Notes under the pieces: generated by a model | The model's input: only the letters and a program-made list of their open reading frames with translations | The model's database searches: none | Told to the model about the DNA's origin: nothing | Assembly (NCBI GenBank): GCA_963664705.1 | Contig: OY761556.1 | Span: 576,001-640,000 of the forward strand | DNA: 64,000 bases | From: Acidobacteriota bacterium | GTDB taxonomy: Bacteria > Acidobacteriota > UBA6911 | Direction of reading: 5' to 3' | Program-made: the position numbers and the translations under genes | Part shown: piece after piece, positions 18,588 to 37,427 of the stretch | Layout of the letters: every line of letters begins with the position of its first letter | How positions within the stretch are numbered: position 1 is the first letter of the stretch

Positions 18588-18590
18588 GCT

Positions 18591-19355: not shown

Positions 19356-19454
19356 GGCAGGATGGCCCCGGCCTCTTCCCGATTATTATTGCTGTGAAGC
19401 AGGTATTTGCTGATCGCTACTAGTATGATAGCCTTCCGCTTTTGGGGACGAATC

Positions 19455-20920: not shown

Positions 20921-21733
20921 TTGTATAGCAAAATAAACCCCAATCTCCGGCAGCGCATAATAAGTTGCATGATTCTGGCTGTTTTCGGCTGGGTGGTGGG
21001 GTACCCCCAATCGCAACGAACTCCAGGTTTTTTGCGTGTGCCCGCACAGTCCGGAATGGTTCAGCCATCCGGGAATCCGGAATTCACGTTCGTACGTGTG
21101 GTCTATACCGGGCTTGGGCCTTATGGATATTACAAAGGGTGGTATACAGACTGGCCAAAGTCCGACCGTCAGTTCATCCTGGGAGTGCGCAGGTTGACAA
21201 ACATACGGGTTGCGGAGCAAGGCAAAACGGTTAGTCTGACGGATCCGGAAATCTATCGTTATCCTTTTATCTATTCTGTCGAATGCGGACACTGGAATTT
21301 CAGCGAGGCTGAGGCCGCCGGCCTCAGGGAATATCTGAAGCGGGGCGGTTTTATGTTCTGCGACGATTTCTGGGGCACATGGGAATGGGAGAATTTTCAG
21401 CAGCAAATATCCCGAGTTCTTCCCGGTGCCGTTATTACCGAAATTCCAATGAGCCACCCGATATTTCATTCCTACTACGACATTCGTCAGATCATCCAGA
21501 CTCCCAATGTCGGCAATGCCCTTTACTCGGAAAATACCTATGAACAGGATGGGTTTGTTCCTCACTGCCGGGGAATTTTCGATCAGGAGGGTAGACTCCT
21601 TATTGTCATAAACTGGAATACCGATTTGGGCGACTCCTGGGAATGGGCTGATCTTCCAGGGTTTCCCGCCAAGTATTCAACATACGCTTACCAGATCGGA
21701 ATCAATGCAATTGTCTATGCCATGAGCCACTAA
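20921..21733 (+). CDS. DUF4159-domain protein (exported)
   Basis: FTFVRVVY, WYTDWPKSD, YPFIY, LREYLKRGGFMFCDDFWG, NTDLGDSWEW, GINAIVYAMSH. Start uncertain. Confidence 0.85.
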   Translation: MYSKINPNLRQRIISCMILAVFGWVVGYPQSQRTPGFLRVPAQSGMVQPSGNPEFTFVRVVYTGLGPYGYYKGWYTDWPKSDRQFILGVRRLTNIRVAEQGKTVSLTDPEIYRYPFIYSVECGHWNFSEAEAAGLREYLKRGGFMFCDDFWGTWEWENFQQQISRVLPGAVITEIPMSHPIFHSYYDIRQIIQTPNVGNALYSENTYEQDGFVPHCRGIFDQEGRLLIVINWNTDLGDSWEWADLPGFPAKYSTYAYQIGINAIVYAMSH

Positions 21734-21744
21734 CTCGGGGAACC

Positions 21745-24027
21745 ATGACTGCAGTCTTCGAATGGCTGTTTAAGTTTCGGCCGCTGCTTTATGAAAAGGG
21801 CCACCTCTCTTTTCATCCAATATGGCCTTGGTATATTACTTTGCTGTTTGCCGTCGCGGCCGTCCTTGGGGCTTATTGGTTCTATCGATATCCTTCACTC
21901 CCGGGCGCCTGGCGCTTAGGGCTGTCCGGTCTGCGTGCGGCTGCATTTCTCGTCATTCTTGTCCTTTTTTTGCAGCCCGTTCTTCGTGTTCATTCCGTGA
22001 TACCGCAGAAAAACTTTGTCGCGATTGCCTATGATGGAAGCAGAAGCATGGAGATACGAGATGGCGCGGATGGACAGTCCAGAATGTCAGTGCAGCAGCG
22101 TCTCCTGCGTGCCTCAGACAATCCACTCTTGAAGGATCTCTCCTCTCGATTCAAGCTCCGGTTCTTCAGGTTTTCAAAGGCAGCGGAGCGAACAGAGGCA
22201 TTTCAGGATTTGCCGCGTCGCGGCGAGATCACGGACATTGAGAACACTCTCCGTCAGATAGAAGGAGAACTGGCGGCAGCACCTGTCGCGGGCATTGTTT
22301 TAGTCACCGACGGTGCGGATAATCACTCCACAAACCTGGATGCCGTATCCGCACAGCTGCATGCCCGGAATATCCCCATATATGCCGTTGGAATTGGCAG
22401 CACCGGTTTTCCTCGCGATGCAGAGGTGCTGCGGGTTTCCGCACCAAGGCATGTGCTCAAGGATACCCTTGTGGAAGCCGAGGTTTTCGTGCGATCGACT
22501 GGATATGCCGGGCGTCGTTCCAAGCTTCTGGTTATGGAGCGGGACCGGCAGATTCAAAGCCAGGAGATCCTGCTCGGCGGCGATGGTGAGGTGAAAACCT
22601 ACAAAGTTTATTTCAACAGCCAGACACCCGGTTCACGTGTTTTCACTTTCAGGATAGAGCCGTTCGATGATGAACTGATCCGGGAAAACAACGATCAGTC
22701 CGCGCTTGTTCGAGTTGACGATGCGCAGCCGCAGATTCTATACGTTGAAGGAGAGCCACGCTGGGAGTATGGCTTTCTCAGACGTGCCATCCTTTCCGAC
22801 AAAAACCTCCAGGTGGTGACGCTGCTTCGCCAGGCGGACGGGAAATTTCTGAGACAGGGTATTGATTCGCCATCCACATTGGAAAAGGGGTTTCCCGTCG
22901 ACAAAGCGGAATTGTTCAAGTACAGGGGACTGATTATCGGGAGTGTGGAAGCCAGTTTCTTCACTTTTGATCAGCTCCGTATGATCTCGGATTTTGTAAG
23001 TCAGCGCGGCGGCGGCTTTCTCATGCTTGGCGGCAAGAATTCGTTCGGTCAGGGCGGATATATGAACACCCCGGTCGAAGACCTTCTGCCGGTCCGGCTT
23101 GGCCCCAATAGTCGCGAAATCCCTGACTTCAGTGAGCTTGAATATAAGGTGCATTTGACATCCTATGGGGCCGAGCACCCGGTAACCAGGCTGTCCTTGT
23201 CGGAATCCGAAAACAGGAAACGGTGGGACGCCGCACCCACGCTAATTGGCTTCAATCCGACCGCCGGCCCTAAACCCGGGGCAACCGTGCTTGCCCAGGG
23301 AGGAACGCCCGACTCCCGCGGGCAAAGCCCCGTCATACTTGCATTCCAGCGATTTGGAAAGGGGAAGTCCTTAGCCTTCACAACCGCAGCCAGCTGGCGC
23401 TGGAAGATGCAGCAGGACCATGCCAACAACTTTCATGAGCTTTTCTGGAAGCAAGCCCTGCGATGGCTGGTCAGCGATTCTCCAGATCAGGTCAGTGTGG
23501 ATACGGAAAAACGGACCTATTCTTCTGACGAGCCTGTCCTGATCCGGGCGGAGGTTAATGACGCGTCATTCGGCCCTTTGAATAAGGCGCAAGTGCGGGC
23601 ACAGGTCAAGTCTCCTTCAGGGCAGAGCAGCAGCGTTCCTCTTTCCTGGGATGTCGAGTCTGACGGCGTTTATTCCGGCGCCTTTAAGGCATCCGAGGAC
23701 GGCATGTATGAAATATCCTGTGAAGCATCCCTGGGAACCCAGAGCATCGGTTCCGCAAAATCTGAGTTCTGGGTCGCTCCATCCACGGAAGAATTTCACA
23801 ATGCCCAACTGAATGCAGACCTTCTCAAGCGCCTGTCCCATGCAACGGGTGGGCGTTACTATTCTCCGGAAAACACCCGCACACTCGCAGAAGACATCTC
23901 GTACATCGATACAGGATCATCGCGGCTGGAAGAAAAGGATTTGTGGGATATGCCGTTCAATTTTCTGCTTTTGGTAGGCTTGGTTTCCGCGGAATGGATC
24001 TTAAGAAAAAGAAAAGGACTGGCATGA
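21745..24027 (+). CDS. Membrane protein with vWA, Ig-like and glutamine-amidotransferase-like domains
   Basis: Two N-terminal TMs, MIDAS-like YDGSRSM and VLVTDG, ILYVEGEPRWEY, RGGGFLMLGG, FWKQALRWL, C-terminal TM EWILRKRKGL. Confidence 0.82.
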   Translation: MTAVFEWLFKFRPLLYEKGHLSFHPIWPWYITLLFAVAAVLGAYWFYRYPSLPGAWRLGLSGLRAAAFLVILVLFLQPVLRVHSVIPQKNFVAIAYDGSRSMEIRDGADGQSRMSVQQRLLRASDNPLLKDLSSRFKLRFFRFSKAAERTEAFQDLPRRGEITDIENTLRQIEGELAAAPVAGIVLVTDGADNHSTNLDAVSAQLHARNIPIYAVGIGSTGFPRDAEVLRVSAPRHVLKDTLVEAEVFVRSTGYAGRRSKLLVMERDRQIQSQEILLGGDGEVKTYKVYFNSQTPGSRVFTFRIEPFDDELIRENNDQSALVRVDDAQPQILYVEGEPRWEYGFLRRAILSDKNLQVVTLLRQADGKFLRQGIDSPSTLEKGFPVDKAELFKYRGLIIGSVEASFFTFDQLRMISDFVSQRGGGFLMLGGKNSFGQGGYMNTPVEDLLPVRLGPNSREIPDFSELEYKVHLTSYGAEHPVTRLSLSESENRKRWDAAPTLIGFNPTAGPKPGATVLAQGGTPDSRGQSPVILAFQRFGKGKSLAFTTAASWRWKMQQDHANNFHELFWKQALRWLVSDSPDQVSVDTEKRTYSSDEPVLIRAEVNDASFGPLNKAQVRAQVKSPSGQSSSVPLSWDVESDGVYSGAFKASEDGMYEISCEASLGTQSIGSAKSEFWVAPSTEEFHNAQLNADLLKRLSHATGGRYYSPENTRTLAEDISYIDTGSSRLEEKDLWDMPFNFLLLVGLVSAEWILRKRKGLA

Positions 24028-25103
24028 GTCGAAGCCTTCGGTTGCCAATCAGCTGTTGCCAGCCTGCAGCTACCCTCCGCTGCTTGCTGTCGATGGTGGC
24101 ATGTTCGTTCCGGATCCCATTCCTGGCGATCACTGTGGGCATCCTGATGCTGCTTTCCTGCATGCCTCAACTCACCGCACAGGAAAGAGACGGACGGTGG
24201 GCCATCCTGATGGTGGGAAATAGCGGTGATCCCGATTTGCAGAAGGCATACCTGAAGGAAATAACCGATCTCCGTACGGCTTTAGAGAAGTCCATGGGCT
24301 TTCCGCACGAGCAGATTGTGGCGCTTTTTGAGGATCCCGCTTTGGCTCCGGGAATAATTGAGGGCAAATCGACGCGCGAAGAACTTCAGACAGCCTGTCG
24401 CCAAATGGCCGCGCGTGTCAGGGCAGAGGATATGGTTTTTGTCTTCATTGACGGGCACGGTACCTATGATGGCAACACCTATAAGCTGAATTGTCCCGGG
24501 CCGGATCCCACGGCCGAGGATCTGGCCTCCATGCTGTACTCCATTCCTGCGCGCCGGTTTGTGATCGTCAACGCCACGAGCAGCAGCGGCGGCAGTATCG
24601 CTTCGCTTTCCCGGGAGGGTACGGTCCTGATTGCCGCAACGAAAAGCGGCATGGAAAGAAACAGCACGCACCTGGGGCGCTATTTTGTTGATGCCCTGCA
24701 AAACAATGCGGCGGATACGGACAAAAACGGTCGCGTATCGATGCTGGAAGCATTTTTCTATGCCAGGCAGAGAGTAGAAAACTATTACGTCAGCGAAGGC
24801 AGCCTGCAGACCGAGCACCCGGTTTTGGATGATCTCGGAGAAAAAAAAGGACAGGACTTGCCTGGCCCGGAAAATGGGGCGGGATTGCTTGCGCGAACCC
24901 TATTTCTGGATAAGGAAGTGCCGCAAGCCACGGGCACGCTGACAATAGAGCAGCAGGGATTGGCGCGTGAGGCTCGGGATGTCGAACAACAGATTGAAGC
25001 CCTGAAATATTCTAAAAGCCAGATACCGGAAAACGAATACGAGCAGCGACTGGAAGCCTTATTGCTAAGGCTGGCACAAATCAATGCAAAGCTTCCGAAG
25101 TAG
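24024..25103 (+). CDS. Caspase/legumain (clan CD)-fold protein with catalytic Cys replaced
   Basis: RWAILMVG, VFVFIDGHG (His), VIVNATSSSGG where the Cys motif is expected, EF-hand-like DTDKNGRVSMLE, C-terminal coiled coil. ATGA overlap with upstream stop. Confidence 0.65.
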   Translation: MSRSLRLPISCCQPAATLRCLLSMVACSFRIPFLAITVGILMLLSCMPQLTAQERDGRWAILMVGNSGDPDLQKAYLKEITDLRTALEKSMGFPHEQIVALFEDPALAPGIIEGKSTREELQTACRQMAARVRAEDMVFVFIDGHGTYDGNTYKLNCPGPDPTAEDLASMLYSIPARRFVIVNATSSSGGSIASLSREGTVLIAATKSGMERNSTHLGRYFVDALQNNAADTDKNGRVSMLEAFFYARQRVENYYVSEGSLQTEHPVLDDLGEKKGQDLPGPENGAGLLARTLFLDKEVPQATGTLTIEQQGLAREARDVEQQIEALKYSKSQIPENEYEQRLEALLLRLAQINAKLPK

Positions 25104-27693
25104 AATTGGATTTGTGATCATCAAAGGAAGGCTTTTCGTTCTGGGCCTTTGTCTGCACTTGTTCTGTCTTCTCCCATGGTGTGCCGCCTCCATGCAGGGC
25201 AAACCCTCCACCCTCGCATCCCACGAAAACCTTGAGGCAAAGGAGCTCTTCAAATTACGGCAAGCCGGTGCCTATCGCGAAGCTTGTCGGCGTGGGGAGG
25301 AATATCTGTCGAAACGAGGCGAGTCGGCGATTCTGCGACTGGAATATGGCCGTAGCCTTGTAGCGGTTGGGGAGTACGGGCCTGGAGAGAATGCGCTTAG
25401 GGCGGCCATTGCGAATGCCCCGATAGTTTCCACGCTGAGGTTTCACGCAATTCGGACGTTGGCTGAGTTGCTTGAAGTAACGGGCCGTCAGAAGGAAGCC
25501 GTATCGCTTTGGGATCAGTTGCTGGCTCAATACAGGACCGGAGGGGTGAATGACAGTGAGACCTTGGGTGAATTGGCTGTGGCTGCCTGGCATCGAGGGT
25601 ATTTCCGGGAGGCTCAAAATATCTTCGTGGATGCAACCGACCCAGAACGGAGTGCTGTATCCGCGGAGGTGCTCACCGATTTTGGCTTTCTGCTGCTCGA
25701 AAAATACAATGCCAAGGATGCGCTCGGGGCCTTTCGCGACAGTCTGAAGTTGGACAACTCGGCGCGGGCGAAGCTTGGCATAGCGCTTGCAAAAAAGTAC
25801 GACAATGATTTCGAGGTGGAGGTGAATGCCCGCGCTGCACTCGAGATCAACCCTTACCTGGTCGGGGCGCGGAATGTATTGGCCCAGCTTGCAATTGAAG
25901 AAGAAGCCTATCCGGAGGCGCTCGAGCATATTGAAGCTGCCCTGAGGGTTAATCCTTTGGACCTGGAAACCCTCAGCCTGCAGGCATTCTGCCGCTACGT
26001 TCAGGGAGACATGTCCGGGTTTGCCAATATCGAGAAGCGCGTGCTGGGGCTTAACCCATCATACGGGGAGTTCTACCGCATACTGGCGGATAACCTTGTT
26101 TCCAGAAGAAAATACCAGGAGGCCGTAGACTGGAGCCGGAAAGCAATTGCAATTCAGCCGGCACTTTGGACTGCTCATGTACTGCTGGGAATGAATCTCA
26201 TGCGCGTCGGCAACATCGAGGAGGGACGAAAGTCCATTCAGCGGGCGTTTGAGGGAGATCCCTACAACGTATGGGCAGTCAATTCGCTGGATCTTTTTGA
26301 TCAGGTCAAATCCTTTAGCCGGATACAGAGCGAGCATTTTGCTTTCCGTATGGCCAAGGAGGATGCTTCATCTATCGGGTCTTTTGCCCCTGCATTGGCT
26401 GAAGAGGTCTATTCCAAATTGACGCAGCGCTATGGCTTCACACCCGAAGGCCCGATCCAGATTGAAATCTATCCGGATCATGGTGGCTTTGCGGTTCGAA
26501 CCCTCGGACTTCCGGGGTTGTCGGGAGTCCTGGGTGTCTGTTTTGGCAAAGTCATTGCCATGGATGCTCCCGGTACCAGACCCAAAGGAACGTATAATTG
26601 GGGATCCACCTTGTGGCATGAATTTGCGCATGTCATTACCCTTCAAATGACCAAGCATAATATTCCCCGTTGGTATTCAGAGGGCTTATCTGTTTATGAA
26701 GAACATAAAGCCCGTCCCGGTTGGGGCGAGAACCTGACCCTTGATTTCCTTCGCGCCTACAAGGCTGGAAAGCTCATGAAGGCAAGCGAATTGAACATGG
26801 GGTTCGTACGCCCGTCGAGCCCCGAACAGGTGATGCTGACCTACTACCAGGCGGGGTTGATCTGTGAAATGATCGAGGAGAAATACGGGTTTGATAAGAT
26901 ACGCCAGTCTCTCCTCCTTTTTGCGGAAAACAAATCTGCACAAGAAGTATTTCATCAAACGCTTGGAATGGATCAGGCTCAGATGGATGAAGCCTATGCA
27001 AAATATCTGGATTCGCGCGTGAAAGCGATTGCGGAACATATTCGGTTTGAAAAAGATGGATCCAAACCGGACACAGCGGATAAGGCCAGCCTGCTTCAGA
27101 AAGTGAAAGACAATCCTGGGGATTTCTGGGCCAATCTGAGTCTGGGGCGGTTGCTTCGCAAGGAAGGATCCCTCGCGGGGGCCGAAATTTATTTGAAAGA
27201 TGCCCAGCGGAGTTTCCCGCAGTACGTGGAAGAGGGGAATTCCTACCAGTTGCTTGGGGAAATCTACGGTGAGCTGAAGCGAAATGATGAGGCTTTGGCT
27301 CAGTTCAGGAATTGGAGCCTGGTGGATGGGTCTGCCCTCGATCCGCTGGCCGCTGCTGCCCGCATCTACCTGGATCGCAAGGATTGGGCTTCTGCCACGG
27401 AGGTGTTGAGCCTTTCCATTTACATAGATCCCTACGATCTGCAGGTTTTTAAGAAGCTCGGCGATGCGGCTATGGCCTGCGGGAAATGGTCCACCGCCAT
27501 AGATGCTTATCGCAGCCTTGCCGGTTCGAAAGTCGCGGATTCTGCCGGGGCGCATTTTGATTTGGCCCGTGCCCTTCTGGAATCCGGCAACCGGCCGGAG
27601 TCGAAACGAGAGGTGCTGAAGGCGCTGGAAATTGCGCCCTCCTATCGCGAGGCACAGGAGTTGCTGTTGAGCCTGAGCGGGGAAGCAAAATGA
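25084..27693 (+). CDS. TPR-repeat protein with gluzincin (peptidase MA-like) domain
   Basis: Multiple TPRs around LWHEFAHV...PRWYSEG (HExxH plus downstream E). N-terminal signal-like segment. Confidence 0.85.
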   Translation: MQSFRSRIGFVIIKGRLFVLGLCLHLFCLLPWCAASMQGKPSTLASHENLEAKELFKLRQAGAYREACRRGEEYLSKRGESAILRLEYGRSLVAVGEYGPGENALRAAIANAPIVSTLRFHAIRTLAELLEVTGRQKEAVSLWDQLLAQYRTGGVNDSETLGELAVAAWHRGYFREAQNIFVDATDPERSAVSAEVLTDFGFLLLEKYNAKDALGAFRDSLKLDNSARAKLGIALAKKYDNDFEVEVNARAALEINPYLVGARNVLAQLAIEEEAYPEALEHIEAALRVNPLDLETLSLQAFCRYVQGDMSGFANIEKRVLGLNPSYGEFYRILADNLVSRRKYQEAVDWSRKAIAIQPALWTAHVLLGMNLMRVGNIEEGRKSIQRAFEGDPYNVWAVNSLDLFDQVKSFSRIQSEHFAFRMAKEDASSIGSFAPALAEEVYSKLTQRYGFTPEGPIQIEIYPDHGGFAVRTLGLPGLSGVLGVCFGKVIAMDAPGTRPKGTYNWGSTLWHEFAHVITLQMTKHNIPRWYSEGLSVYEEHKARPGWGENLTLDFLRAYKAGKLMKASELNMGFVRPSSPEQVMLTYYQAGLICEMIEEKYGFDKIRQSLLLFAENKSAQEVFHQTLGMDQAQMDEAYAKYLDSRVKAIAEHIRFEKDGSKPDTADKASLLQKVKDNPGDFWANLSLGRLLRKEGSLAGAEIYLKDAQRSFPQYVEEGNSYQLLGEIYGELKRNDEALAQFRNWSLVDGSALDPLAAAARIYLDRKDWASATEVLSLSIYIDPYDLQVFKKLGDAAMACGKWSTAIDAYRSLAGSKVADSAGAHFDLARALLESGNRPESKREVLKALEIAPSYREAQELLLSLSGEAK

Positions 27694-28520
27694 CGGAAAG
27701 CAGATTGCGAAAGACGAATGAAAAGACGAGACCCGGTGGGTTTCGTAGCCTTCACTTTTGCATTCGCAATTCATCAGGGATCATTTTCTTCCTGCTGGCC
27801 CTTGTTGCTGTTGCTGCCGGCCACTTCTCCGGGATTGCTCAGGAATCAGAGCAGGAGTTGGCCCGGAAGGAAAGCCGTTTTACTTTCGGCAGGATTTATT
27901 TTGATTCCCCACTGACGCGAATATTCAGCGGACCGATCGGCGCCGGGAATGGTCCGCCATGGAGCCATGACTGGCCTCGGTCTGAAGAGCATTTTATGAA
28001 GATTATGGCGGAGGTTACCAGGCTGGATGTGAACCCCGGGGGGCATATTCTCTCGTTTCAGAATGATGAATGTTTCAAATATCCTATAGCGTACCTGTGC
28101 GAAGTCGGATACATGAATCTTTCAGATCAGGAAGCACGCCGGATGGCCGAATACCTTCTGCGCGGCGGGTTCCTCATTGTGGACGATTTTCGCGGGGAGC
28201 GTGAATTTGCTAATTTTCAGATGCAGATGAAACGGGTATTTCCGAAGCGCTCCCTGGAGGAATTGCCCCGGTCACATCCCATCTGGACCTGTTTTTACGA
28301 TATCTCAAAATTGATGATCGAGCCGCCCTACTCCAGGTTCCTGACTCCTCAGTATTTCGGAATGAGCGATGACACCGGACGGCTTATGATGGTTGTTGAT
28401 TACAATAACGACATCAGCGATTACTGGGAATGGTCGGATGACCCTTTGACTCCCATCGAGGAGTCCAACGAAGCTTACAAATACGGGGTCAACTACGTGA
28501 TGTATGCGTTAACGCATTAG
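27690..28520 (+). CDS. Second DUF4159-domain protein (exported)
   Basis: FTFGRIYF, WSHDWPRSE, EYLLRGGFLIVDDF, NNDISDYWEW, GVNYVMYALTH. Paralog of 20921-21733. Confidence 0.85.
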   Translation: MTESRLRKTNEKTRPGGFRSLHFCIRNSSGIIFFLLALVAVAAGHFSGIAQESEQELARKESRFTFGRIYFDSPLTRIFSGPIGAGNGPPWSHDWPRSEEHFMKIMAEVTRLDVNPGGHILSFQNDECFKYPIAYLCEVGYMNLSDQEARRMAEYLLRGGFLIVDDFRGEREFANFQMQMKRVFPKRSLEELPRSHPIWTCFYDISKLMIEPPYSRFLTPQYFGMSDDTGRLMMVVDYNNDISDYWEWSDDPLTPIEESNEAYKYGVNYVMYALTH

Positions 28521-28552
28521 GTATATCCGGTAGCTGAAAGGGAACGAATACG

Positions 28553-29578
28553 ATGGACGTTCAATCGATGGTTGCCAACGATTCAGAATTGGTGGAAAGA
28601 CTCCGTGTCGGTCATCGCGGAATTATGAAGGAACTGAGGAAGGTGATTATTGCGCAGAAAACCGTGGTGGATCAGGCGCTGATATCGCTTCTCGTCGGAG
28701 CGCATTCCATGATTACCGGCGTTCCCGGCCTTGCGAAAACGCTGCTCATCAAAACGCTTGCGCAGATTTTGGATCTAAGCTTTAAGAGGATCCAATTTAC
28801 GCCTGACCTGATGCCCGCCGACATAACCGGAACCGATATCATCCAGGAAGATGTCGGTACCGGCAAACGCGAGCTTGTATTTATGAAGGGACCGATTTTT
28901 GCGAACATATTGTTGGCCGACGAAATCAACCGCACGCCGCCCAAGACCCAGGCTGCGCTGCTTGAGGCAATGGAAGAACTGCAGGTAACCGTTCAGGGTA
29001 TTACTTACCGGATGGAACGCCCATTTTTTGTTCTGGCAACGCAGAACCCGATTGAACTCGAGGGAACATACCCTCTCCCTGAGGCCCAGTTGGACCGGTT
29101 TATGTTCAATGTCGTCATCGATTACCTTGGAGAAGAAGATGAGCATACGGTTGTAACGACAACAACGGTGCCGCAGGATATTCGGCTCGAAAGGACCGTC
29201 ACGGGTCCGGACATCATTGCATTTCAGGAACTTGTGCGCCGCGTGCCGGTTCCTGAATCCGTATCCCGATATGCGGTGGCTCTGGTGAGAGCCAGCAGGC
29301 CCGGTATCACTAACCCCCCGCAGGAGTTCATAAAGGAATTTGTCAGTTGGGGAGCCAGCCCGCGGGCAGCCCAGTATCTTATGCTTGCGGGCAAAGCTCG
29401 GGCATTGCTGCACGGTCGGTTCAATGTATCGGTGGAGGACGTCCAGGAGTTGGCCTATCCCGTTATGCGCCATCGGATTTTGACAAACTTTCATGCCGAA
29501 TCGCAGAAGGTCTCCACAGATGAGATTATTCGCCGTCTCCTGGAAGTAGTGCCTGTTCCCAAATCCGGCCTTCGCTAG
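28553..29578 (+). CDS. moxR: MoxR-family AAA+ ATPase
   Basis: GVPGLAKT, RIQFTPDLMPADITG, LLADEINRTPPKTQAALLEAM, ATQNPIELEGTYPLPEAQLDRF. Confidence 0.96.
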   Translation: MDVQSMVANDSELVERLRVGHRGIMKELRKVIIAQKTVVDQALISLLVGAHSMITGVPGLAKTLLIKTLAQILDLSFKRIQFTPDLMPADITGTDIIQEDVGTGKRELVFMKGPIFANILLADEINRTPPKTQAALLEAMEELQVTVQGITYRMERPFFVLATQNPIELEGTYPLPEAQLDRFMFNVVIDYLGEEDEHTVVTTTTVPQDIRLERTVTGPDIIAFQELVRRVPVPESVSRYAVALVRASRPGITNPPQEFIKEFVSWGASPRAAQYLMLAGKARALLHGRFNVSVEDVQELAYPVMRHRILTNFHAESQKVSTDEIIRRLLEVVPVPKSGLR

Positions 29579-29609
29579 TTGCGGGCCTTAATGATCGATT
29601 GAGATTAGT

Positions 29610-30509
29610 ATGAGCGATTTTCAGGCAACCCGTTTCCTTGATCCTCAAGCCCTGACTCGAATTGCCTCGCTGGAACTCATAGCCAGAACGGTGGTGGAGG
29701 GATTTATCTCAGGGCTGCATCGATCTCCGCACCTGGGATTCAGTGTGGATTTTGCGGAATACAGTCCCTACAGACCCGGTGATGATATTCGCAAAATTGA
29801 CTGGAAGGTGTATGCCCGAACAGATCGGTTCTTTATCAAAAACTATGAGGGGGAGACCAATACCAGCATACATCTCATTCTCGACTGCAGCCGATCCATG
29901 TCTTATGGCAGCCAGGCAGTCACCAAACTTGCCTACGGCCAGTACCTGGCTGCGTCGCTCGGCTATTTTGCATTTAAACAGAGAGATGCTGTGGGATTTG
30001 TATCCTACGATGAAGATGTTATTCGCTACGTTCCAGCGCGCGGGTCGGTGGGACATCTGAATACAGTGCTTCACGCCATTGAAAATTCCGAACCTGGGAA
30101 AAAGACCAGTTTTGTAAAACCATTGGTGAGTGTCGCCGAACGGCTTCGAAGACGCGGGATCGTTATTGTGATATCCGATCTATATGATGAGCCTGAAAAG
30201 GTCATCAGCGGATTGAGGCACCTGGCTTATCGCGGGAATGATGTTATTGTGTTTCAAATCCTGGATCCGGCAGAAATTCGATTTGATTTTCCCGAGGCGG
30301 CTCAGTTCGTGGATTTGGAAACACGGGCTGAAATGCTGGTGGTCCCGGAATATATTCGCCAGGAGTATCGCCGCGTGCTCCAGGCGCAGATTGCCGACTA
30401 TGAAAAGGAATGCCGGAAAGATCGAATGGATTTTTTTCAGATCGATACCTCGCAGCCTTTGGATCAGGCATTGTTCAACTATCTGGTGCGTAGAGAGCAA
30501 TTATATTAG
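29610..30509 (+). CDS. DUF58 (vWA-like) protein
   Basis: GLHRSPHLGFSVDFAEY..Y.PGDDIRKIDWKVYART, LDCSRSM, VVISD. Confidence 0.93.
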   Translation: MSDFQATRFLDPQALTRIASLELIARTVVEGFISGLHRSPHLGFSVDFAEYSPYRPGDDIRKIDWKVYARTDRFFIKNYEGETNTSIHLILDCSRSMSYGSQAVTKLAYGQYLAASLGYFAFKQRDAVGFVSYDEDVIRYVPARGSVGHLNTVLHAIENSEPGKKTSFVKPLVSVAERLRRRGIVIVISDLYDEPEKVISGLRHLAYRGNDVIVFQILDPAEIRFDFPEAAQFVDLETRAEMLVVPEYIRQEYRRVLQAQIADYEKECRKDRMDFFQIDTSQPLDQALFNYLVRREQLY

Positions 30510-30518
30510 CCAACACGA

Positions 30519-30546
30519 CTGACTACTGACTACTGACTACTGACTA
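30519..30546. repeat. Perfect heptamer tandem repeat (CTGACTA)x4
   Basis: Four exact copies. The last A is the A of the downstream ATG. Confidence 0.92.
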
Positions 30547-32672
30547 TGAATTTTGTGAATCCTCTTTTTCTGATTGGCGGGCTGGCGGCAGGGATTCCGA
30601 TCCTCCTGCACCTTATCAGAAGGGAGCATGCCAGGAAGATCGAGTTCTCGACTCTGATGTTTCTGCAGCGTGTTTCCAGGCGTTCTATTCGATATCAAAA
30701 ACTGCGGCACCTTCTGCTCCTGCTTTTGCGAATTCTGGCTTTCCTGCTGATCGTCCTTGCCTTCATGCGGCCCTATCGGGAAAAGGCGCAGGCGAGTGCG
30801 TCCATTGGCAGAATATCGACGGCACATATTATTGTCGTGGATAACTCGTTGAGCATGGCGTACCGCGACCATTGGGATAAAGCCAAGGAGGCCGCAGTTC
30901 GCATTATTCACAAGTCTGAGCCAGGCGATAAATTTGCGATACTCCAGTTTTCGGATAGAACGGTAGCCAGGACGGCTTTCATCGCGGGATCGTCCGAGGC
31001 TGAGAGCGAGGTCCGTCATCTGGAATTGAGTGATCAGGCGACCCGATATGCTCAAGCGCTGCGGGTGGCAGAAAGGTTTGCCCTTGATGCCGGTACCCGG
31101 AAGCGGATCATTCACCTCATTTCCGATTTTCAAAAAAACGGCTGGATGGCGGAAGAACGCGATTTTCAACTGGGCGCAGGCATTGAGCTGGATCCCATAG
31201 ATGTGGGATCCGCGGATTTCAGCAATCTCGCGTTTAGAGATGTTCACCTGGCAGGAAACGATCTGGCCCAGGGAAGCGAGATCAGCATTAACGCATCCGT
31301 CGAGAATTATGGGAAACTGGATCGCAAAAACATTTTGATAAAACTGTTTTTGGATGGACGTTCTGTCGCGGAAAAACGGGTAGATATCGGGTCCGGGGCA
31401 TCCCAGGGGATTGAATTTTCCTTGCCAGGGCTCACGTCAGGCATTCATCCTGCGGTGCTGGAGGTCGAAGACCCATATCTGGCGCGAGATAATCGGTTTT
31501 ATATGACGGTCGAGGCCAGAACCAAGACTCTCGTCCAGGTGGTCGAAACCGAAAATACGGATGAGCGGCATTCTCCAGGGTATTTCCTTTCCAAAGCCCT
31601 GAATATCGATACGCTTTCTCCATACAGGATGGCGGTTGTTTCGCCGCAAAATCCTGCGATCAGCGGGAGCCTCCTGATATGGAACAGCACCACAGGTGGA
31701 ACCGCCGGTGTTCAGGAGAAGATACGAGCCTTTGTGAAATCCGGAGGTGGGCTGGCCATAACCATGCCGGAGGGTCTGCAGGCGTCCGAATTCAATCGAA
31801 CTTTCGGCTCCTGGCTTCCCATCAGATATATGGAGGGAACCAACCCCTCGTCCTTTTCCAGGCGACCTTCGGAGGACTATGCCTTGATGACGGCTATCCG
31901 GATGGATCATCCAGTTTTCAAGCCGTTCAGTCAGCCTAATTCCGGGTCGTTCTCCGGCGTTCGATTTTTCCGACATGCTAAACTATCGGTAGGTTCTGCT
32001 GCGGATATCCTGGCTCGATTTGATAATGGTGACCCTGCGCTTATTGCTGTTGCAATCGAAGCCGGTCGCGTGCTGGTTTTCCCCTCCTCGGCCGATGATT
32101 CGTCCAACGATCTCCCCTTGAAAGCCGTTTACGCGCCTTTCTGGCAACAGGCACTTCATTTTCTGGAAAACTTTCAGGAAAGGCGACCGTGGATGGAGGT
32201 GGGCGCGACGTTGTCTCCCAAGACGCTGCTGTCAGACACAGCCCTCAGGCAAGGGAAAGGGCTTGCGAATAGCGAGGCGTCCGTTGCCATCCTCGATCCG
32301 AGAAGGCAGCGGCTCCCTTTATTGCCGGGCGATGCCGCGCTTACACTGGAAACTGCGGGGTTTTATGAAATCCGGGCAATGCATTGGAATATACCCGTAG
32401 CGGTCAATCCGGCGGCAAAGGAATCCGATTTGGAACATGGGAATGCAGAAGAAATGGCGGCAGGTTGGATGGCCTCTAATCCTTCCATGTTGCATCAGGA
32501 TGAGCGATTAGGCCTGGATGATCTGGATCGCCGGCAGCGATTATGGGTTCTGATTCTGATAGGAGCCGCAGTCCTTTTGATTGCTGAATTGATTTTATCC
32601 AACGCTCATCCTGTTTCGCGCGGACAGGAAAGGCCGGTTGGACATGTGCCCATAGCCAGGCGTCAGGCTTAA
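30546..32672 (+). CDS. BatA N-terminal domain / vWA membrane protein
   Basis: MNFVNPLFL...PILLHLI, LLLLLRILA, VVDNSLSM, HLISDFQ, DNRFY, C-terminal TM. Confidence 0.88.
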   Translation: MNFVNPLFLIGGLAAGIPILLHLIRREHARKIEFSTLMFLQRVSRRSIRYQKLRHLLLLLLRILAFLLIVLAFMRPYREKAQASASIGRISTAHIIVVDNSLSMAYRDHWDKAKEAAVRIIHKSEPGDKFAILQFSDRTVARTAFIAGSSEAESEVRHLELSDQATRYAQALRVAERFALDAGTRKRIIHLISDFQKNGWMAEERDFQLGAGIELDPIDVGSADFSNLAFRDVHLAGNDLAQGSEISINASVENYGKLDRKNILIKLFLDGRSVAEKRVDIGSGASQGIEFSLPGLTSGIHPAVLEVEDPYLARDNRFYMTVEARTKTLVQVVETENTDERHSPGYFLSKALNIDTLSPYRMAVVSPQNPAISGSLLIWNSTTGGTAGVQEKIRAFVKSGGGLAITMPEGLQASEFNRTFGSWLPIRYMEGTNPSSFSRRPSEDYALMTAIRMDHPVFKPFSQPNSGSFSGVRFFRHAKLSVGSAADILARFDNGDPALIAVAIEAGRVLVFPSSADDSSNDLPLKAVYAPFWQQALHFLENFQERRPWMEVGATLSPKTLLSDTALRQGKGLANSEASVAILDPRRQRLPLLPGDAALTLETAGFYEIRAMHWNIPVAVNPAAKESDLEHGNAEEMAAGWMASNPSMLHQDERLGLDDLDRRQRLWVLILIGAAVLLIAELILSNAHPVSRGQERPVGHVPIARRQA

Positions 32673-32689
32673 GAGGCCGGGGAGGATCT

Positions 32690-35600
32690 ATGAATGCCTA
32701 CGGGAGCCTGTTGACAACGATACGACAGGTGCGTCGGAAATGGCGCTCCCAGATTCTGGTCAAAGGAATTTCCTTGTTCCTTGCCTCCACGATTGCCTTC
32801 CTCATGCTGGGCGTTTGGGGCGCGGATCTCTTTGGATTCAAGTCTTCCGTGGTTTGGATGATCCGTATTCTAGCCGGGGCAACGGTTCTTTTTACGGGGT
32901 GGTATTTTCTCTGCGTTCCGCTTCGAGCCCGGATAACCAATGTTCAAATTGCACGGTTTGTCGAAGAGAAATATCCCCAATTGGAGGATCGACTTGTTGC
33001 GGCGGTGGAACACGGAGGGAATGCGGCAGAATCGAAGAGCATGATCGATCTTCTCATTAAAGATGCTTTGGATAAGACAGCTGCGATCGATCTGTCGGTG
33101 TTTTTGGATCGCAAACGGCTGCTGTCCTTCGCATTGACCGGGTTTTCCGCACTGCTGGGACTTTTCCTGTTGTTGAATTGGGGGCCGTCATTCTTTCCTT
33201 ACGGGTTCAGTTATCTGTATGCACCATGGACGCAAGCCTCTCTCGGTTCATCTCTGATGATCAAAATCGCTCCCGGCGATGTTGAACTGGCAAAGGGATC
33301 GGATCAGCAGATTCACGCGCAGTTGATCGGGTTTGATTCTTCCGACGTCCGTTTGCTTTCTCAGGTTGAGGGTTCCGCGACATGGAATGCTTCGGTGATG
33401 GAGCCCGAGTCGCGCGGGAGCGGTTTTCAATACCTGCTGGTGGATCTTCGGTCCTCAGTTCGTTACTACGTCGAATCGAAGGGAGTGAAATCCAAAGCTT
33501 GCCTGATTCGCGTTCAGGATCTGGCGAAAGTCGATGCCATCGATCTGACGTATCATTTCCCCGCGTATGCCGGGATGGTTGATCAGACGGTGCGAAATGA
33601 GGGGGATATTTCGGCGCTGAAAGGGACAAGAGTGGATCTGCGGATTCGTCTCAGCCGTCCAGCTGAATCGGCCCGACTCTTGTTTGACAATCAATCGGTT
33701 CTGGATCTTTCGCGAGGTACGGCACAGGACTTTGCCGGCACGCTTACTCTTCAAAGGTCAGGATCCTACGTTGTTCAAATCACCGAACCTCGCGGTTCCA
33801 CTCATCCTGGATCAGCCGAGTATGGCATCGAGGCGCTGGATGACCAGGTTCCAAAGGTGACCATAACCAGGCCGATGCGGGATGTGCGCGCCACCAGCGT
33901 TGAGGAGGTTTTTTCGGAGGTCAAAGGAGAAGATGACATCGGGGTTGGGAAGCTGGAGCTTCACTATTCAGTCAATGGTGGGGCGGAAAGATCGGTGGAT
34001 CTTTACACCGGAAAGCCTCCTAAGACTTCAGTCATCGGGTCCCATACATTCTTACTGGAGGAGTTCGGCCTGCAGCCCGGAGATGTAATTTCCTATTATG
34101 CCAAGGGCTGGGACAACAACAATGCGACCGGGCCTGGCAATGCAAGCTCAGATATCTATTTCATTCAGGTTCGCCCCTTTGAGCAGAAATATACGCAAAA
34201 CCAACAGTCGGGCATGTCCGGGCAGGGGGGAGAGCGGGAGGAAGCGCTCAGCAAGCAGCAGAAGGACATTATCAGCGCGACCTTCAGGCTGATCCGTGAA
34301 AAGAGCAGGATGGAGTCCAAAGAGTACCAGGATGGTCTGAAGTCGCTGGCCCTGGTACAAACCCGTTTGCAGCTGCAGGCGCAAAATGTGGTGGATCGGA
34401 TGCAACGCCGTGGGGCCGTGCAGGTCGATGACAAATTCCGCAAATTGTCCGAATACCTGAGGACCGCCATTCAGGAGATGGAGAAGGCAGCGGCTAATCT
34501 TGGAGCGCAGAAGCCCGACGGAGCAATGCCTAATGAACAAAAGTCCCTCCAGCAGTTGATGCGTGCCGAGAGCCTGTTTCGCGAAATCCAGGTCTCATTT
34601 GCAGCCCAGGGCGGCGGGAGTGGGGCGCAGACAAACGCCGAGGACCTGGCGGATTTGTTCGAGCTGGAATTGAACAAGCTCAAAAACCAGTACGAAACAG
34701 TGCAGCGAGGAGAAGAGCAGGCCCGGGATCAAAAAGTCGACGAGGCAATGGAAAAGCTGAAGGAACTGGCCAGGAGGCAGCAGCAACTCAACGAACGCAA
34801 TCGCATGTTGGGTCAGCAGGGGAAAAGCGCTTCGTCCGGCGGAGAACCCCAAAATCAGCAGGAGTTGATACAGCAGGCGGAGCAAATGCAACGGCAGTTG
34901 CAGCGGTTATCCAGAGAACGCAGCTCTCCTCAGATAAACGAGGCCGGCAGTCAGATCCAGAAGGCGATCGACGAGATGAAAAGGGCTCTCGGCAATTCGC
35001 AAAATCAGAATAGCGCGGAGTCCACAGCTCAGGGGATACGCGCGCTACAGCAGTTGGAAGATGCCGCACGCAAGCTATCCCAGGGTCAAAGAGCCGGATT
35101 TGCCCAGCGTCTTGACGGGGCGGTGGAGGAATCCAAAAGCCTGGTAGAGGAGCAGAAACGAATTCAGGAAGGCCTGGAGCGGCTTTCAAAGGACAAACCT
35201 CCGGCAGGCTTGTCTGAATCCGGCCGCCAGCTTCGTGAAGATATGGTCTCACGGAAAACAAGCCTGGCCGATAGACTCAGAAGTCTGAATAATCAAATTC
35301 AGGATCTCTCGAGGCAGACGCGAAAAAGCCAAAAGGAGACCAGCGACAGATTAGGCGAGGCTGCCAGAGGCATCCAGGACAGCCGCCTCCCGGACCGCAT
35401 CATGAGCGGAAATCCCATGATCCAGAATGGATATTATGACGGCCAGAAACAACGGGAGGATTTTATTCGAGGCAGCCTGGAAGCGCTGAATAAACAGCTG
35501 GAGACGGCCAGAAATAGTGCTGGGCAATCAAAAGAAGGGAAGCTCGAAGAGGCTGCATCACGGGCGCGACAGCTTGCCGAAGGATTGGAATCCATGCAGC

Positions 35601-36187
35601 AGCGCATGAACCAAGCTCAGCAGGGGAAGGAAGGGAACGGCCAGCGGCAAGGTCCACCATCAGCGCGGCAGGATAGTGGGCAGGAACCTCAGGGGCAGAA
35701 GGGTGGTTCAATGCAAACTGGTCCGATTTCAGGCGGACAGGCGGAGGCTACTGTCCGGAATGGCAGACCAAGTCCCGGCACTGATGCCCGCACGCCATCC
35801 GGGAATACGATCGGTCCGCCGATCGGTACCGGAACTCCGGGGAATGAAGAAGCTCGCCAGCTTGGCAGGGAATTACAGCAAAGGCTGACGGATGCGCGGG
35901 ATTTGAAGCCCCTGCTCGATGTGAACTCAACCCAAATGAAAAACCTGGAGAAGGTAATCGAATCGCTGCGAAGGACAGGAGATTATACAAACCAGGGCAA
36001 CCCGGAACAGATTGCCCGGTTGAAGAGCGCTATCGACTATATGCGCAAAGTGGAATTCGATTTGTCCCGGGATCTGGAAAAGCTCAATCAGAGTGAACGA
36101 TATTTGTCCGAAGAGGAGAACGGGTCCCCGGATCGCTACCGTAAGCTGGTCGAGGAGTATTATCGATCCGTTGCCAAAAGCAGGTAA
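32690..36187 (+). CDS. Large DUF4175-like membrane protein with Ig-like domains and long Gln-rich coiled coil
   Basis: Three N-terminal TMs, LEDRLVAAVE, DQVPKVTITRP, EDDIGV, LQPGDVISYYA, Q/E/K-rich helical repeats, C-terminal RYRKLVEEYYRSV. Confidence 0.78.
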   Translation: MNAYGSLLTTIRQVRRKWRSQILVKGISLFLASTIAFLMLGVWGADLFGFKSSVVWMIRILAGATVLFTGWYFLCVPLRARITNVQIARFVEEKYPQLEDRLVAAVEHGGNAAESKSMIDLLIKDALDKTAAIDLSVFLDRKRLLSFALTGFSALLGLFLLLNWGPSFFPYGFSYLYAPWTQASLGSSLMIKIAPGDVELAKGSDQQIHAQLIGFDSSDVRLLSQVEGSATWNASVMEPESRGSGFQYLLVDLRSSVRYYVESKGVKSKACLIRVQDLAKVDAIDLTYHFPAYAGMVDQTVRNEGDISALKGTRVDLRIRLSRPAESARLLFDNQSVLDLSRGTAQDFAGTLTLQRSGSYVVQITEPRGSTHPGSAEYGIEALDDQVPKVTITRPMRDVRATSVEEVFSEVKGEDDIGVGKLELHYSVNGGAERSVDLYTGKPPKTSVIGSHTFLLEEFGLQPGDVISYYAKGWDNNNATGPGNASSDIYFIQVRPFEQKYTQNQQSGMSGQGGEREEALSKQQKDIISATFRLIREKSRMESKEYQDGLKSLALVQTRLQLQAQNVVDRMQRRGAVQVDDKFRKLSEYLRTAIQEMEKAAANLGAQKPDGAMPNEQKSLQQLMRAESLFREIQVSFAAQGGGSGAQTNAEDLADLFELELNKLKNQYETVQRGEEQARDQKVDEAMEKLKELARRQQQLNERNRMLGQQGKSASSGGEPQNQQELIQQAEQMQRQLQRLSRERSSPQINEAGSQIQKAIDEMKRALGNSQNQNSAESTAQGIRALQQLEDAARKLSQGQRAGFAQRLDGAVEESKSLVEEQKRIQEGLERLSKDKPPAGLSESGRQLREDMVSRKTSLADRLRSLNNQIQDLSRQTRKSQKETSDRLGEAARGIQDSRLPDRIMSGNPMIQNGYYDGQKQREDFIRGSLEALNKQLETARNSAGQSKEGKLEEAASRARQLAEGLESMQQRMNQAQQGKEGNGQRQGPPSARQDSGQEPQGQKGGSMQTGPISGGQAEATVRNGRPSPGTDARTPSGNTIGPPIGTGTPGNEEARQLGRELQQRLTDARDLKPLLDVNSTQMKNLEKVIESLRRTGDYTNQGNPEQIARLKSAIDYMRKVEFDLSRDLEKLNQSERYLSEEENGSPDRYRKLVEEYYRSVAKSR

Positions 36188-36272
36188 GGAAGACTGTATT
36201 CTCTGAATTTGCACGCTTTCGCATGAGATCCGGCCATGCCTGGCCCGATTGTGTAGGGCCGCATTATTCTCA

Positions 36273-36300
36273 TTGCCAAGATTCCTGCCGGTGATACGAT
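36273..36300 (+). promoter_or_regulatory. Candidate sigma70 promoter for the UDP-GlcA decarboxylase gene
   Basis: TTGCCA-16 nt-TACGAT with a TG extension. Confidence 0.45.
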
Positions 36301-36356
36301 CAAGGAGATTTGATATCTCCGTTGCACACGGCATGCGTTCTTTCGGGAGGCCCTGG

Positions 36357-37298
36357 ATGCGAATAGTAATTACGGGTGGTGCGGGTTTTCTTGGCAGTCA
36401 TTTGTGTGATCGCCTGCTGAAATTGGGACACGAGGTTATCTGCCTGGACAACCTCTTGACCGGAACGGTCGACAATATCGCCCACCTGATGGGAAATGAG
36501 AGGTTTCAGTTCTTTAAGCATGATGTGACGGAATACATTTTTATCGGTCAGCCGGTTGACGCGGTTATGCATTTTGCCTCCCCCGCGAGTCCCCGCGATT
36601 ATCTCGAGTTGCCGATTCAGACTCTGAAGGTTGGAGCCCTTGGTACCCACAAGACCATTGGACTCGCCAAGCATAAGAAGGCCCGATTCCTCATGGCAAG
36701 CACCTCGGAAAGCTATGGGGATCCGTTGGTGAATCCGCAACCCGAAACCTATTGGGGGAATGTCAATCCTATTGGATTGCGCGGAGTATATGACGAGGCC
36801 AAGCGGTTTGCGGAGGCACTCGTAATGGCGTATTACCGCTATCACAAGGTGGACACGCGTATCGCGCGTATATTCAACACCTATGGCCCGCGCATGCGTC
36901 CGCATGACGGACGCGTGGTTTCCAATTTTATAGTGCAGGCGCTCAAAGGCGAACCGCTCACTGTGTATGGCAAAGGTGACCAGACACGGAGTTTCTGCTA
37001 TGTCGAGGATGAGGTCGATGGATTAATCCGGCTCCTGCTGGTTCCGGAAAGCGAAGAGGTACATCTGCCTGTCAACATTGGGAATCCGCAGGAGCTTACG
37101 GTGCTCGAAATTGCAGAGAAGGTGATCCGCCTGACCGGTTCGAGCAGCGGCATTATCCATGAACCGTTGCCGGAGGATGATCCCAAAGTGCGTCGCCCCG
37201 ATATCACCCGTGCGGGACGTTTATTGGACTGGGCTCCGCGAATACCTCTGGAAGAAGGGTTGCGCCGCACCATCGAATACTTCAGATCCAAATTATAG
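36357..37298 (+). CDS. uxs: UDP-glucuronate decarboxylase (UDP-xylose synthase)
   Basis: [72 protein letters not shown] precedes ATG 36357. Confidence 0.92.
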
Positions 37299-37427
37299 AA
37301 CCTGCTGATAAATGGCGAATCCAGTCGCAGCAGGGATATTTCGTGAGCTTCATTCAACAAATCAAGAACGTGAGAAGCGGATAGGTGCGTCGCTGTGGTA
37401 TGATCTCCGGTTTTAGGAGGTGTGGCT

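Follow-up and report, generated by a model that had tools for sequence, protein, structure and literature searches.

We analysed a cluster of nine genes in a 64,000-nt stretch of the genome of an Acidobacteriota bacterium (assembly GCA_963664705.1; hereafter the window, positions 576001-640000 of the single 6.89-Mb contig OY761556.1). The nine open reading frames, here called g1 to g9, are co-directional on the plus strand and occupy window positions 20921-36187. They form an enlarged MRP-type MoxR-DUF58-BatA operon of the kind represented by Bat, Cmd and Mxa. Judging from the gene content of related loci, the cluster is modular. A core consists of a MoxR ATPase, a DUF58 protein, two vWA-Ig-GATase1-like proteins, a DUF4175-type protein and DUF4159; to it is added an exported pair, a TPR zinc peptidase and a legumain-fold protein, which is present or absent as a unit. 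By analogy with the Mxa module (MxaRSACKL), we tentatively read the cluster as a chaperone system, in which a MoxR-DUF58 motor, working through inner-membrane vWA proteins, may act on the exported protease pair by assembling it, loading it with metal or switching it. The genes of the cluster are as follows.

g1: 20921-21733, plus strand; DUF4159 protein, predicted exported, 270 aa, first of two copies
g2: 21745-24027, plus strand; membrane vWA-Ig-GATase1-like protein, 760 aa
g3: 24024-25103, plus strand; legumain-fold (C13-like) protein, predicted exported, 359 aa
g4: 25084-27693, plus strand; TPR - gluzincin (Peptidase_MA_2) - TPR protein, predicted exported, 869 aa
g5: 27690-28520, plus strand; DUF4159 protein, predicted exported, 276 aa, second copy
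g6: 28553-29578, plus strand; MoxR AAA+ ATPase, predicted cytoplasmic, 341 aa
g7: 29610-30509, plus strand; DUF58 vWA protein, predicted cytoplasmic, 299 aa
g8: 30546-32672, plus strand; BatA-type membrane protein, 708 aa
g9: 32690-36187, plus strand; DUF4175-type membrane protein, 1165 aa

An initial annotation, made from the DNA letters alone, had described these frames as one co-directional operon of ~15.3 kb, and we recovered both the layout and the domain content. Neighbouring genes overlap or are separated by at most 36 nt, the successive spacings from g1 to g9 being +11, -4, -20, -4, +32, +31, +36 and +17 nt. Pfam reproduced all the domain calls; the VWA domain of g2 and the DUF4175 domain of g9 scored below threshold and were then backed by family comparisons. 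The start of g3 was taken as the ATG at 24024, in an ATGA overlap with the stop of g2; the longest open reading frame begins at 23943. A scan for promoters and terminators gave no usable transcription signal for the operon: promoter-like sites numbered 9 vs 13.5 expected by chance, and the 34 terminator-like sites (20.9 expected) were dispersed within genes.

The conservation of gene order exceeds chance by far, because all 12 loci from the same class and, largely, 80 named loci keep it. In the same-class loci the order g2 to g9 is kept in 12/12, with g5 missing in one and g1 absent save for a remnant in L019. The named loci are the best 80 of at least 576 stretches that encode a g3 relative in a scan of species genomes; among them g2 and g3 are adjacent in 76/76, g4 lies between g3 and g6 in 61 of 67, and g6-g7-g8-g9 follow in this order in 51 of 52. 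Conservation of this order was the point on which the initial annotation had made its proposal of a single system depend, and it held in the first set and, largely, in the second. The co-occurrence of the genes points the same way. In an even sample of 301 Acidobacteriota genomes, each at least 90% complete, the g3 profile matched 89 genomes at E<=0.001 and 75 at E<=1e-60, and all of these 75 have a g9-type match: the 77 genomes matched by the g9 N-terminal profile at E<=1e-10 comprise the same 75, a strong match at a contig end and a weak partial match.

The named loci belong to Acidobacteriota (Terriglobia, Bryobacterales, Blastocatellia, Vicinamibacteria) and Gemmatimonadota, together with two contigs bearing foreign bin labels. 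Those relatives of the window proteins that have names come from Acidobacteriota. In a Gemmatimonadota-type sample (the phylum of the L050 genome, Gemmatimonadales), 57 of the 151 genomes match g3 at E<=1e-40. Matches to g3 were found in 25 of the 41 genomes of a set of relatives that includes the window's own genome, and a search of 1.84 billion proteins with the g3 profile returned 1419 representatives at E<=1e-30. The two foreign labels are 'Heliobacteriaceae' (L036) and 'Bifidobacteriaceae' (L075), on contigs of metagenome-assembled genomes that carry the operon; both contigs are probably mis-binned, because their g3 genes nest among those of Acidobacteriota on the tree.

Three layouts of the cluster were found. 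Type I is that of the window. Type II, represented by five loci (L107-L111), runs g2, DUF4159, MoxR, DUF58, g8, g9, DUF4159 and has neither g3 nor g4; in L110 the DUF4159 gene between g2 and MoxR is missing as well. Type III, also represented by five loci (L112-L116), is permuted into g4, DUF4159, MoxR, DUF58, g8, g9, g2, g3. All eight genes are present in L112 and L114, and the upstream end of L113, L115 and L116 falls outside the stretch examined. Types II and III were found through genomes with two g9 genes, and one genome (G298) holds both types. The division into two modules follows from the type II loci, since these have the core without g3 and g4.

DUF4159 genes vary in number between loci. 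Of the 51 loci that span g2 to g9, 11 have none, 32 have one, 5 have two and 3 have three. In 20 loci they lie only upstream and in 11 only in the middle; 5 loci have them both upstream and in the middle, 3 upstream and downstream, and 1 only downstream, so that an upstream copy is present in 28 of the 51; the g5 position is occupied in 11 of the 12 same-class loci. A cluster of nine genes with two DUF4159 proteins, as initially described, is therefore not the typical layout: it is a minority form, found in 5 of the 51 loci.

Natural gene fusions join the two members of the exported pair. Two of the best 150 representatives found with the g3 profile (P0260 and P0261) are long proteins in which TPR, Peptidase_MA_2 and TPR regions precede the g3 domain; P0260 aligns with residues 194-863 of g4 (E 3e-84) and with residues 45-340 of g3 (E 6e-44). 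The possibility that these two are g2-g3 fusions was considered and rejected, as the sequences are g4-g3 fusions. Three full-length g4-g3 fusions of 1156, 1160 and 1159 aa come from different sources; all three begin like a signal peptide and contain HExxH, GHG and the g3 loop motif described below; P0260 and P0272 share 68% identity. A metagenome scan found a fused g4-g3 gene of ~1160 aa in four loci (L121:10001-13471, L122, L123 and L124), and separate adjacent genes, g4 then g3, in L125 and L126. Because of the natural fusions and the adjacent gene pairs, g3 and g4 belong together: on the evidence of these sequences they are one unit, acting together and encodable apart from the core, and the two proteins are probably in contact. 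Long frames of 1021-1186 aa around g3 in GC-rich genomes were also considered as fusions and rejected: in the four loci fetched (L117-L120, from Gemmatimonadota genomes of 67-69% G+C) they are stop-free overlaps of type I loci, in which frames of 1100-1160 aa cross g2 and g3 in another frame and so mimic fusions.

The peptidase member of the pair, g4, matches TPR families and Peptidase_MA_2 (48.8 bits, cut-off 32.4). Its HEFAH motif lies at residue 512, and H512, E513, H516 and E533 are invariant in 81/81 aligned sequences. Since the HExxH motif and the Glu are thus conserved, the g4 peptidase is probably active. A search of PDB sequences with the peptidase part gave a chance-level match only (E 0.96).

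The other member, g3, had been described as a Cys-less caspase-like protein. The caspase-like fold is borne out by structure comparison. In Pfam, g3 matches Peptidase_C13 with 29.3 bits, and its AlphaFold model (pLDDT 90.7, pTM 0.84) has as its best Foldseek match in the PDB a legumain (4awb_A, E 3.7e-9, target-normalised TM 0.59), followed by metacaspases, MALT1 and a glycosylphosphatidylinositol (GPI) transamidase subunit; peptide asparaginyl ligases also matched. A profile search of PDB sequences gave a marginal match to the caspase-like GSU0716 (3bij, E 0.22). In that alignment the Gly-His-Gly of g3 falls on the catalytic His, and a variable column, occupied by Ser187 in the window, falls on the catalytic Cys. 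We counted this column over 212 sequences, made up of 120 close homologues, the 12 same-class loci and the 80 named loci: it holds C in 122, A in 67, S in 21, G in 1 and R in 1. C prevails in the close homologues (107 of 120) and A in the named loci (58 of 80). All 212 sequences have G144-H145. Cys-less is therefore an apt description of the window's genome and a wrong one for the family, in which 122 of 212 sequences have Cys.

A FastTree tree of 122 rows was built without the Cys column, using all 92 locus rows and every fourth of the 120 close homologues (90 omitted); on it the column requires no fewer than 21 changes of state. Because of these repeated C/A/S changes the column is, as far as the alignment can tell, a small-residue position rather than a conserved nucleophile, and g3, judged by conservation, is not a cysteine protease. 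Other positions are strictly kept: T206, E211, D231, E242, E264, H265 and D270 are invariant. D231 and E242, found in 212/212 sequences, bound the loop DTDKNGRVSMLE (D231-E242), which in the model is flanked by helices 217-228 and 240-258. The EF-hand loop consensus spans 12 residues between helices, with D in position 1, D or N in positions 3 and 5, G in position 6, a hydrophobic residue in position 8 and E in position 12. We take the loop DTDKNGRVSMLE to fit this consensus, and g3 is probably a non-catalytic legumain-fold protein with predicted Ca binding. The protein ends in a C-terminal helical hairpin, and Ala-x-Ala-like sites follow the N-terminal hydrophobic stretch in g3 and its homologues. 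The g3 paralogues of type III loci keep the Gly-His-Gly and the loop, have Arg in place of H265, and carry A, S or V at the Cys column. Compared with legumain and the C13 family, g3 thus keeps the fold and the catalytic His-Gly; the Cys is catalytic in legumain, whereas the window has Ser in its place and the g3 family as a whole varies there; and g3 adds the EF-hand-like loop, the C-terminal hairpin and the pairing or fusion with a zinc peptidase. The description of g4 and g3 as an exported protease and pseudo-protease agrees with these observations, both having signal-peptide-like N-termini, with the g4 motif intact and no Cys at the nucleophile position of g3.

The cytoplasmic side of the core would be formed by g6 and g7. 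In Pfam g6 matches AAA_3 with 209.1 bits (cut-off 27) and AAA_lid_2 with 65.2 bits (cut-off 22.7), and its identity across the fetched loci is 58-83%. Strict regular expressions matched neither Walker A nor Walker B in g6; GVPGLAKT and LLADE, visible by eye, are presumably their MoxR forms. The DUF58/VWA_2 gene g7 (DUF58 157.7 bits, VWA_2 31.1 bits) lies 31 nt downstream, and the sequence MoxR-then-DUF58 is kept in 12/12 same-class loci. In g7 the metal ion-dependent adhesion site (MIDAS) reads DCSRS at residue 92, with the D and the first S in 70/70 sequences and the last S in 68 of 70. A hydropathy scan found zero hydrophobic segments in either g6 or g7, as expected from their proposed cytoplasmic location.

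The membrane part of the core comprises g2, g8 and g9. In g2, Pfam finds GATase1_like (49.6 bits), VWA (19.6 bits, below the cut-off of 23.8) and, weakly, MG2. The protein has two N-terminal hydrophobic segments, followed by vWA, Ig-like, GATase1-like and second Ig-like domains and a C-terminal hydrophobic tail, which ends in RKRKGLA and falls below the hydropathy threshold used. Its MIDAS is DGSRS at residue 97, with DxSxS in 84/84 ungapped rows (87 rows, 3 gapped). In g8, Pfam finds BatA (66.5 bits), VWA_2 (55 bits) and CARDB (21.4 bits), and NCBIfam adds the TIGR02226 double-membrane anchor (68.6 bits), its sole addition among the nine proteins. The plan of g8 is an N-terminal double anchor, vWA, CARDB/Ig, a GATase1-like region and a C-terminal membrane segment; its MIDAS, DNSLS at residue 99, is kept in 66/66 sequences. 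Hydropathy and K/R counts mark a K/R-rich loop between the first two membrane segments of g8, and P18, H22, L23, F34 and L37 are invariant in the g8 alignment. A direct pairwise comparison of g2 and g8 showed no similarity, and the comparison of their family profiles by hhalign aligned them over 532 columns (probability 99.8%, E 6e-28). Judged from these profiles, g2 and g8 are paralogues with the common plan of anchor, vWA, Ig-like, GATase1-like and Ig-like domains.

The match of g9 to DUF4175 (19.1-21.8 bits, cut-off 27.3) spans only positions 206-334 of the 825 in the profile; DUF4175 is matched by 28 of 32 g9 homologues at E<=0.01, with a best value of 4.6e-13. An AlphaFold model of residues 1-520 (pLDDT 84.6) shows three membrane helices, a cytoplasmic helical segment (~84-138) with the invariant E92, and three tandem beta-sandwich domains. 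These Ig-like domains lie at ~190-495, and their Foldseek neighbours in the PDB are generic tandem Ig/FN3 arrays. From residue 500 on, the C-terminal ~650 aa are ~40% Q/E/R/K by composition. The AT skew of the window reaches 0.30 at 34001-36000, which is the Q/E/K/R-rich part of g9; the jump is likely an effect of the codon composition of that part.

Because of the K/R-rich loop of g8 and K/R-rich tails, the positive-inside rule places large parts of g2, g8 and g9 in the predicted periplasm, the first 50 residues of g2 being left aside. The hydrophobic segments and these predicted periplasmic parts are in line with the earlier assignment of the three as membrane proteins. For the Borrelia BatA-type protein BB0173, the published text seen in part gives an experimentally determined periplasmic location of the vWA domain (PMC5700661).

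The proteins g1, g3, g4 and g5 each have one hydrophobic, signal-peptide-like N-terminal stretch and are predicted to be exported. The two DUF4159 proteins match their family over the full length (g1 163.4 bits, g5 162.9 bits), share 36% identity and are the only DUF4159 proteins encoded in the window's genome. Profile comparison links DUF4159 weakly to the GATase1-like region of g8 (probability 59.8%, E 8.8e-5), and g2 gave no match (12.6% probability). Longer fused forms of DUF4159 were sought and none scored, which given the method is weak evidence. On plasmids, DUF4159 was found in two records (Gemmatirosa, unannotated; Corynebacterium).

The window's genome contains three AAA_3 genes, g6 included. 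Since a canonical Bat operon lies elsewhere in the genome, ~3.3 Mb from the window (L106:9343-17974), the cluster is a separate paralogous MoxR system, distinct from the organism's Bat operon. The latter encodes MoxR, DUF58, a 355-aa protein without a Pfam match, BatA-vWA, a second vWA protein, a TPR protein, BatD and a TPR+SH3 protein. The third MoxR module, ~150 kb beyond the window on the minus strand (L105:6102-10463), consists of MoxR, a long DUF58 and a TgpA-type transglutaminase membrane protein, and adjoins ruvA and ruvB. The Bacteroides aerotolerance (Bat) operon runs MoxR, DUF58, a hypothetical protein, BatA, BatB, BatC, BatD, BatE. The window cluster and Bat share the MoxR-DUF58 pair, vWA proteins with a double anchor of the BatA type, and a TPR protein. 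Bat has BatD (PF13584) and BatE (TPR+SH3), whereas none of the window's nine proteins matches BatD or SH3 in Pfam; and the window adds to the Bat plan DUF4159, DUF4175 and GATase1-like domains, the zinc peptidase and the legumain-fold protein. In the available portions of two articles a periplasmic complex is proposed for Bat (PMC3557215, PMC5700661), and the first of these describes lowered aerotolerance in Bat mutants of B. fragilis and no phenotype for bat deletions in Leptospira (PMC3557215).

The likeness to Mxa lies in a MoxR, a DUF58-type protein and further vWA proteins (g6, g7, g2, g8) beside an exported metalloprotein. Mxa is the sole module of its kind with a defined biochemical output: according to the accessible part of a recent account, MxaRSACKL are all needed to load Ca2+ into the periplasmic methanol dehydrogenase, and a MoxR/VWA complex is expected (PMC12276312). 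Other MoxR systems mature specific complexes, as an excerpted source has it (PMC3893208). The Mxa client is methanol dehydrogenase, whereas the candidate clients in the window are the zinc peptidase and the legumain-fold protein; no pyrroloquinoline quinone dehydrogenase of the MxaF/MxaI client type was found by Pfam in the nine proteins and six flanking proteins scanned. DUF4159, DUF4175 and GATase1-like domains, which are not reported for Mxa, are present in the window cluster.

The cmdA-D operon of Rhizobium leguminosarum (RL3499-RL3502) is a four-gene MoxR operon of the MRP type without the protease pair. It is said to be conserved widely and to bear on the integrity of the envelope and on cell morphology, going by one-sentence summaries of the 2011 work of Vanderlinde and colleagues. 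It presumably also encodes DUF58 and BatA-N/DUF4175-type membrane proteins; in the control genomes DUF4159 matched Caulobacter and DUF4175 did not. A literature search, judged by titles and abstract openings, found no function assigned to the extended architecture of the window, as had been supposed, and for DUF4159 only the Pfam database paper turned up. The initial annotation had further suggested an undescribed system. No published description was found, so far in agreement; the cluster is, however, not of a wholly new kind, since it enlarges the MRP-type Bat/Cmd/Mxa operons. For the envelope-spanning machine that the initial annotation proposed no support emerged; an outer-membrane component is absent from the nine genes.

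If our tentative chaperone reading is right, cytoplasmic MoxR-DUF58 would act on cytoplasmic loops of g8, g2 and g9. The only cytoplasmic parts of these three membrane proteins look to be short conserved loops, namely the g8 loop with H22, L23, F34 and L37 and the g9 segment with E92. The core has three conserved MIDAS sites, in g2, g7 and g8; the periplasmic ones would bind the protease pair or load it with a divalent cation. The ATP-driven core would in this way switch on the pair, or retain it, at the periplasmic face of the inner membrane, and the physiological output would be envelope protein processing or quality control.

Several observations weigh against this reading. The core works without the pair in type II loci, and chaperone and client are only one reading of the adjacency. 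The pair, in turn, may work without the core: in L121, L123 and L124 the fused g4-g3 gene has no MoxR, DUF58, g2, g8 or g9 within 10 kb on either side. The distribution is patchy, with a g3 match in 13 of the 24 further genomes examined in the genus and in about a quarter of the phylum sample. The g3 loop has no match to a Pfam EF-hand family at E<=0.01, and its EF-hand reading comes from the consensus. The topology of g2, g8 and g9 comes from a simple hydropathy scan, which leaves the first 50 residues of g2 ambiguous in orientation. Finally, the client is not known in Bat and Cmd, where phenotypes are pleiotropic or, in Leptospira, absent, as the partial text of one article has it (PMC3557215).

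Type II loci, with a core but no g3 or g4, and the free-standing fused g4-g3 gene would both suit a structural scaffold for envelope integrity of the Bat/Cmd kind, a cation-dependent periplasmic lattice that the membrane vWA proteins, the DUF4175 protein and DUF4159 would build, that MoxR would remodel, and to which g3 and g4 would be optional quality-control accessories rather than clients. We regard such a scaffold as the chief rival, somewhat less likely than the chaperone reading; the build of g9, three Ig-like domains followed by ~650 Q/E/R/K-rich residues, agrees with it. So do reports on related systems, as far as the accessible sections go: RL3499, a MoxR protein of Rhizobium, is an important factor in cell morphology and in the integrity of the membrane (PMC3893208), a table gives RL3499 and RL3500 as impaired in growth on complex medium (PMC5118466), and Arc2 (PA4317-PA4323) of P. 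aeruginosa, a seven-gene MoxR/vWF cluster, guards the cell envelope against a predicted inner-membrane pore-forming toxin (PMC8926400). Arc2 resembles the window through its MoxR-like ATPase and vWF-domain protein, and the comparison extends to these shared features only; the portion of the Arc2 paper at hand reports no peptidase or C13-like gene (PMC8926400), whereas the window has both. A scaffold gives no reason for the association of pair and core in types I and III, and the Pfam scan of the nine proteins found no outer-membrane or peptidoglycan-binding domain.

An exported protease for nutrition or surface-protein turnover, which would degrade external or periplasmic proteins and which the rest of the cluster would only anchor or regulate, is improbable. 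Such a protease would leave unexplained why a cytoplasmic AAA+ ATPase and three MIDAS proteins are conserved, in strict order, in two phyla. In its favour are a gluzincin motif intact in 81/81 and a pair that can occur by itself, fused into one exported protein, next to housekeeping genes (L121, the one locus whose neighbours were scanned). An M16 peptidase gene just upstream of the operon, in the window and near relatives, would fit as well, but this neighbour is restricted to 3 of 12 same-class and 4 of 80 named loci.

The structural matches of g3 to legumains, peptide asparaginyl ligases and the human GPI transamidase subunit raise the idea of a sorting or transpeptidation machine, with the legumain/GPI8-fold protein cleaving envelope proteins and attaching them in the manner of C13 transamidases. 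The invariant His and the Cys in 122 of 212 sequences, including 107 of 120 close homologues, lend themselves to such an activity; the Ser of the window protein, the Ala in 58 of 80 named loci, the A, S or V of the type III paralogues and at least 21 C/A/S flips on the 122-row tree speak against it, and we consider it highly improbable. A nucleoside triphosphate-dependent conflict or anti-phage MoxR-vWA system with a caspase-like effector, suggested by a weak bpMoxR match of g6 (29.1 bits, cut-off 27) and by the caspase-fold protein and TPR repeats, is scarcely credible given the 209 bits of AAA_3, no PADLOC match for any of the nine proteins at E<=0.001, no beta-propeller domain among them in Pfam, export signals on the caspase-fold and TPR proteins, an unconserved nucleophile column, and gene order and content that are stable across two phyla.

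Many bacterial phyla have MRP-type MoxR operons (Bat, Cmd, Arc2, Mxa), which affect envelope integrity, stress tolerance and fitness; only the Mxa module among them has a defined output. Clusters of the window type are common in two major soil phyla, Acidobacteriota and Gemmatimonadota. With an apparently intact zinc peptidase and a partner that is at times fused to it, they would offer a measurable activity for probing the roles of the ATPase and the membrane vWA proteins. They also illustrate a legumain fold retained in a probably non-catalytic role. One may go further and suppose, with considerable doubt, that the MoxR-DUF58-BatA-type core is a general machine by which cytoplasmic ATP loads divalent metal into, or switches on, periplasmic clients, the client here being a two-part protease in which the legumain-shaped subunit, no longer catalytic, has turned into a calcium-sensing regulator of the zinc peptidase. 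If that were true, the operon would give a first enzymatic read-out for the unexplained Bat/Cmd family.

The M16 (insulinase-like) peptidase gene upstream of the operon lies at window positions 19407-20810, co-directional with the cluster and 110 nt ahead of g1. It keeps its place in L018-L020, and an M16 match precedes the cluster in L025, L027, L028 and L032; the other same-class and named loci have no M16 match. Genes for sugar modification flank the operon on both sides, at window positions 16444-19355 and 36249-38600. Each flank encodes an epimerase/dehydratase and a DegT-type aminotransferase, with a methyltransferase in addition upstream. Downstream sugar genes also occur in two loci of the same genus, DegT in L018 and the epimerase in L020.

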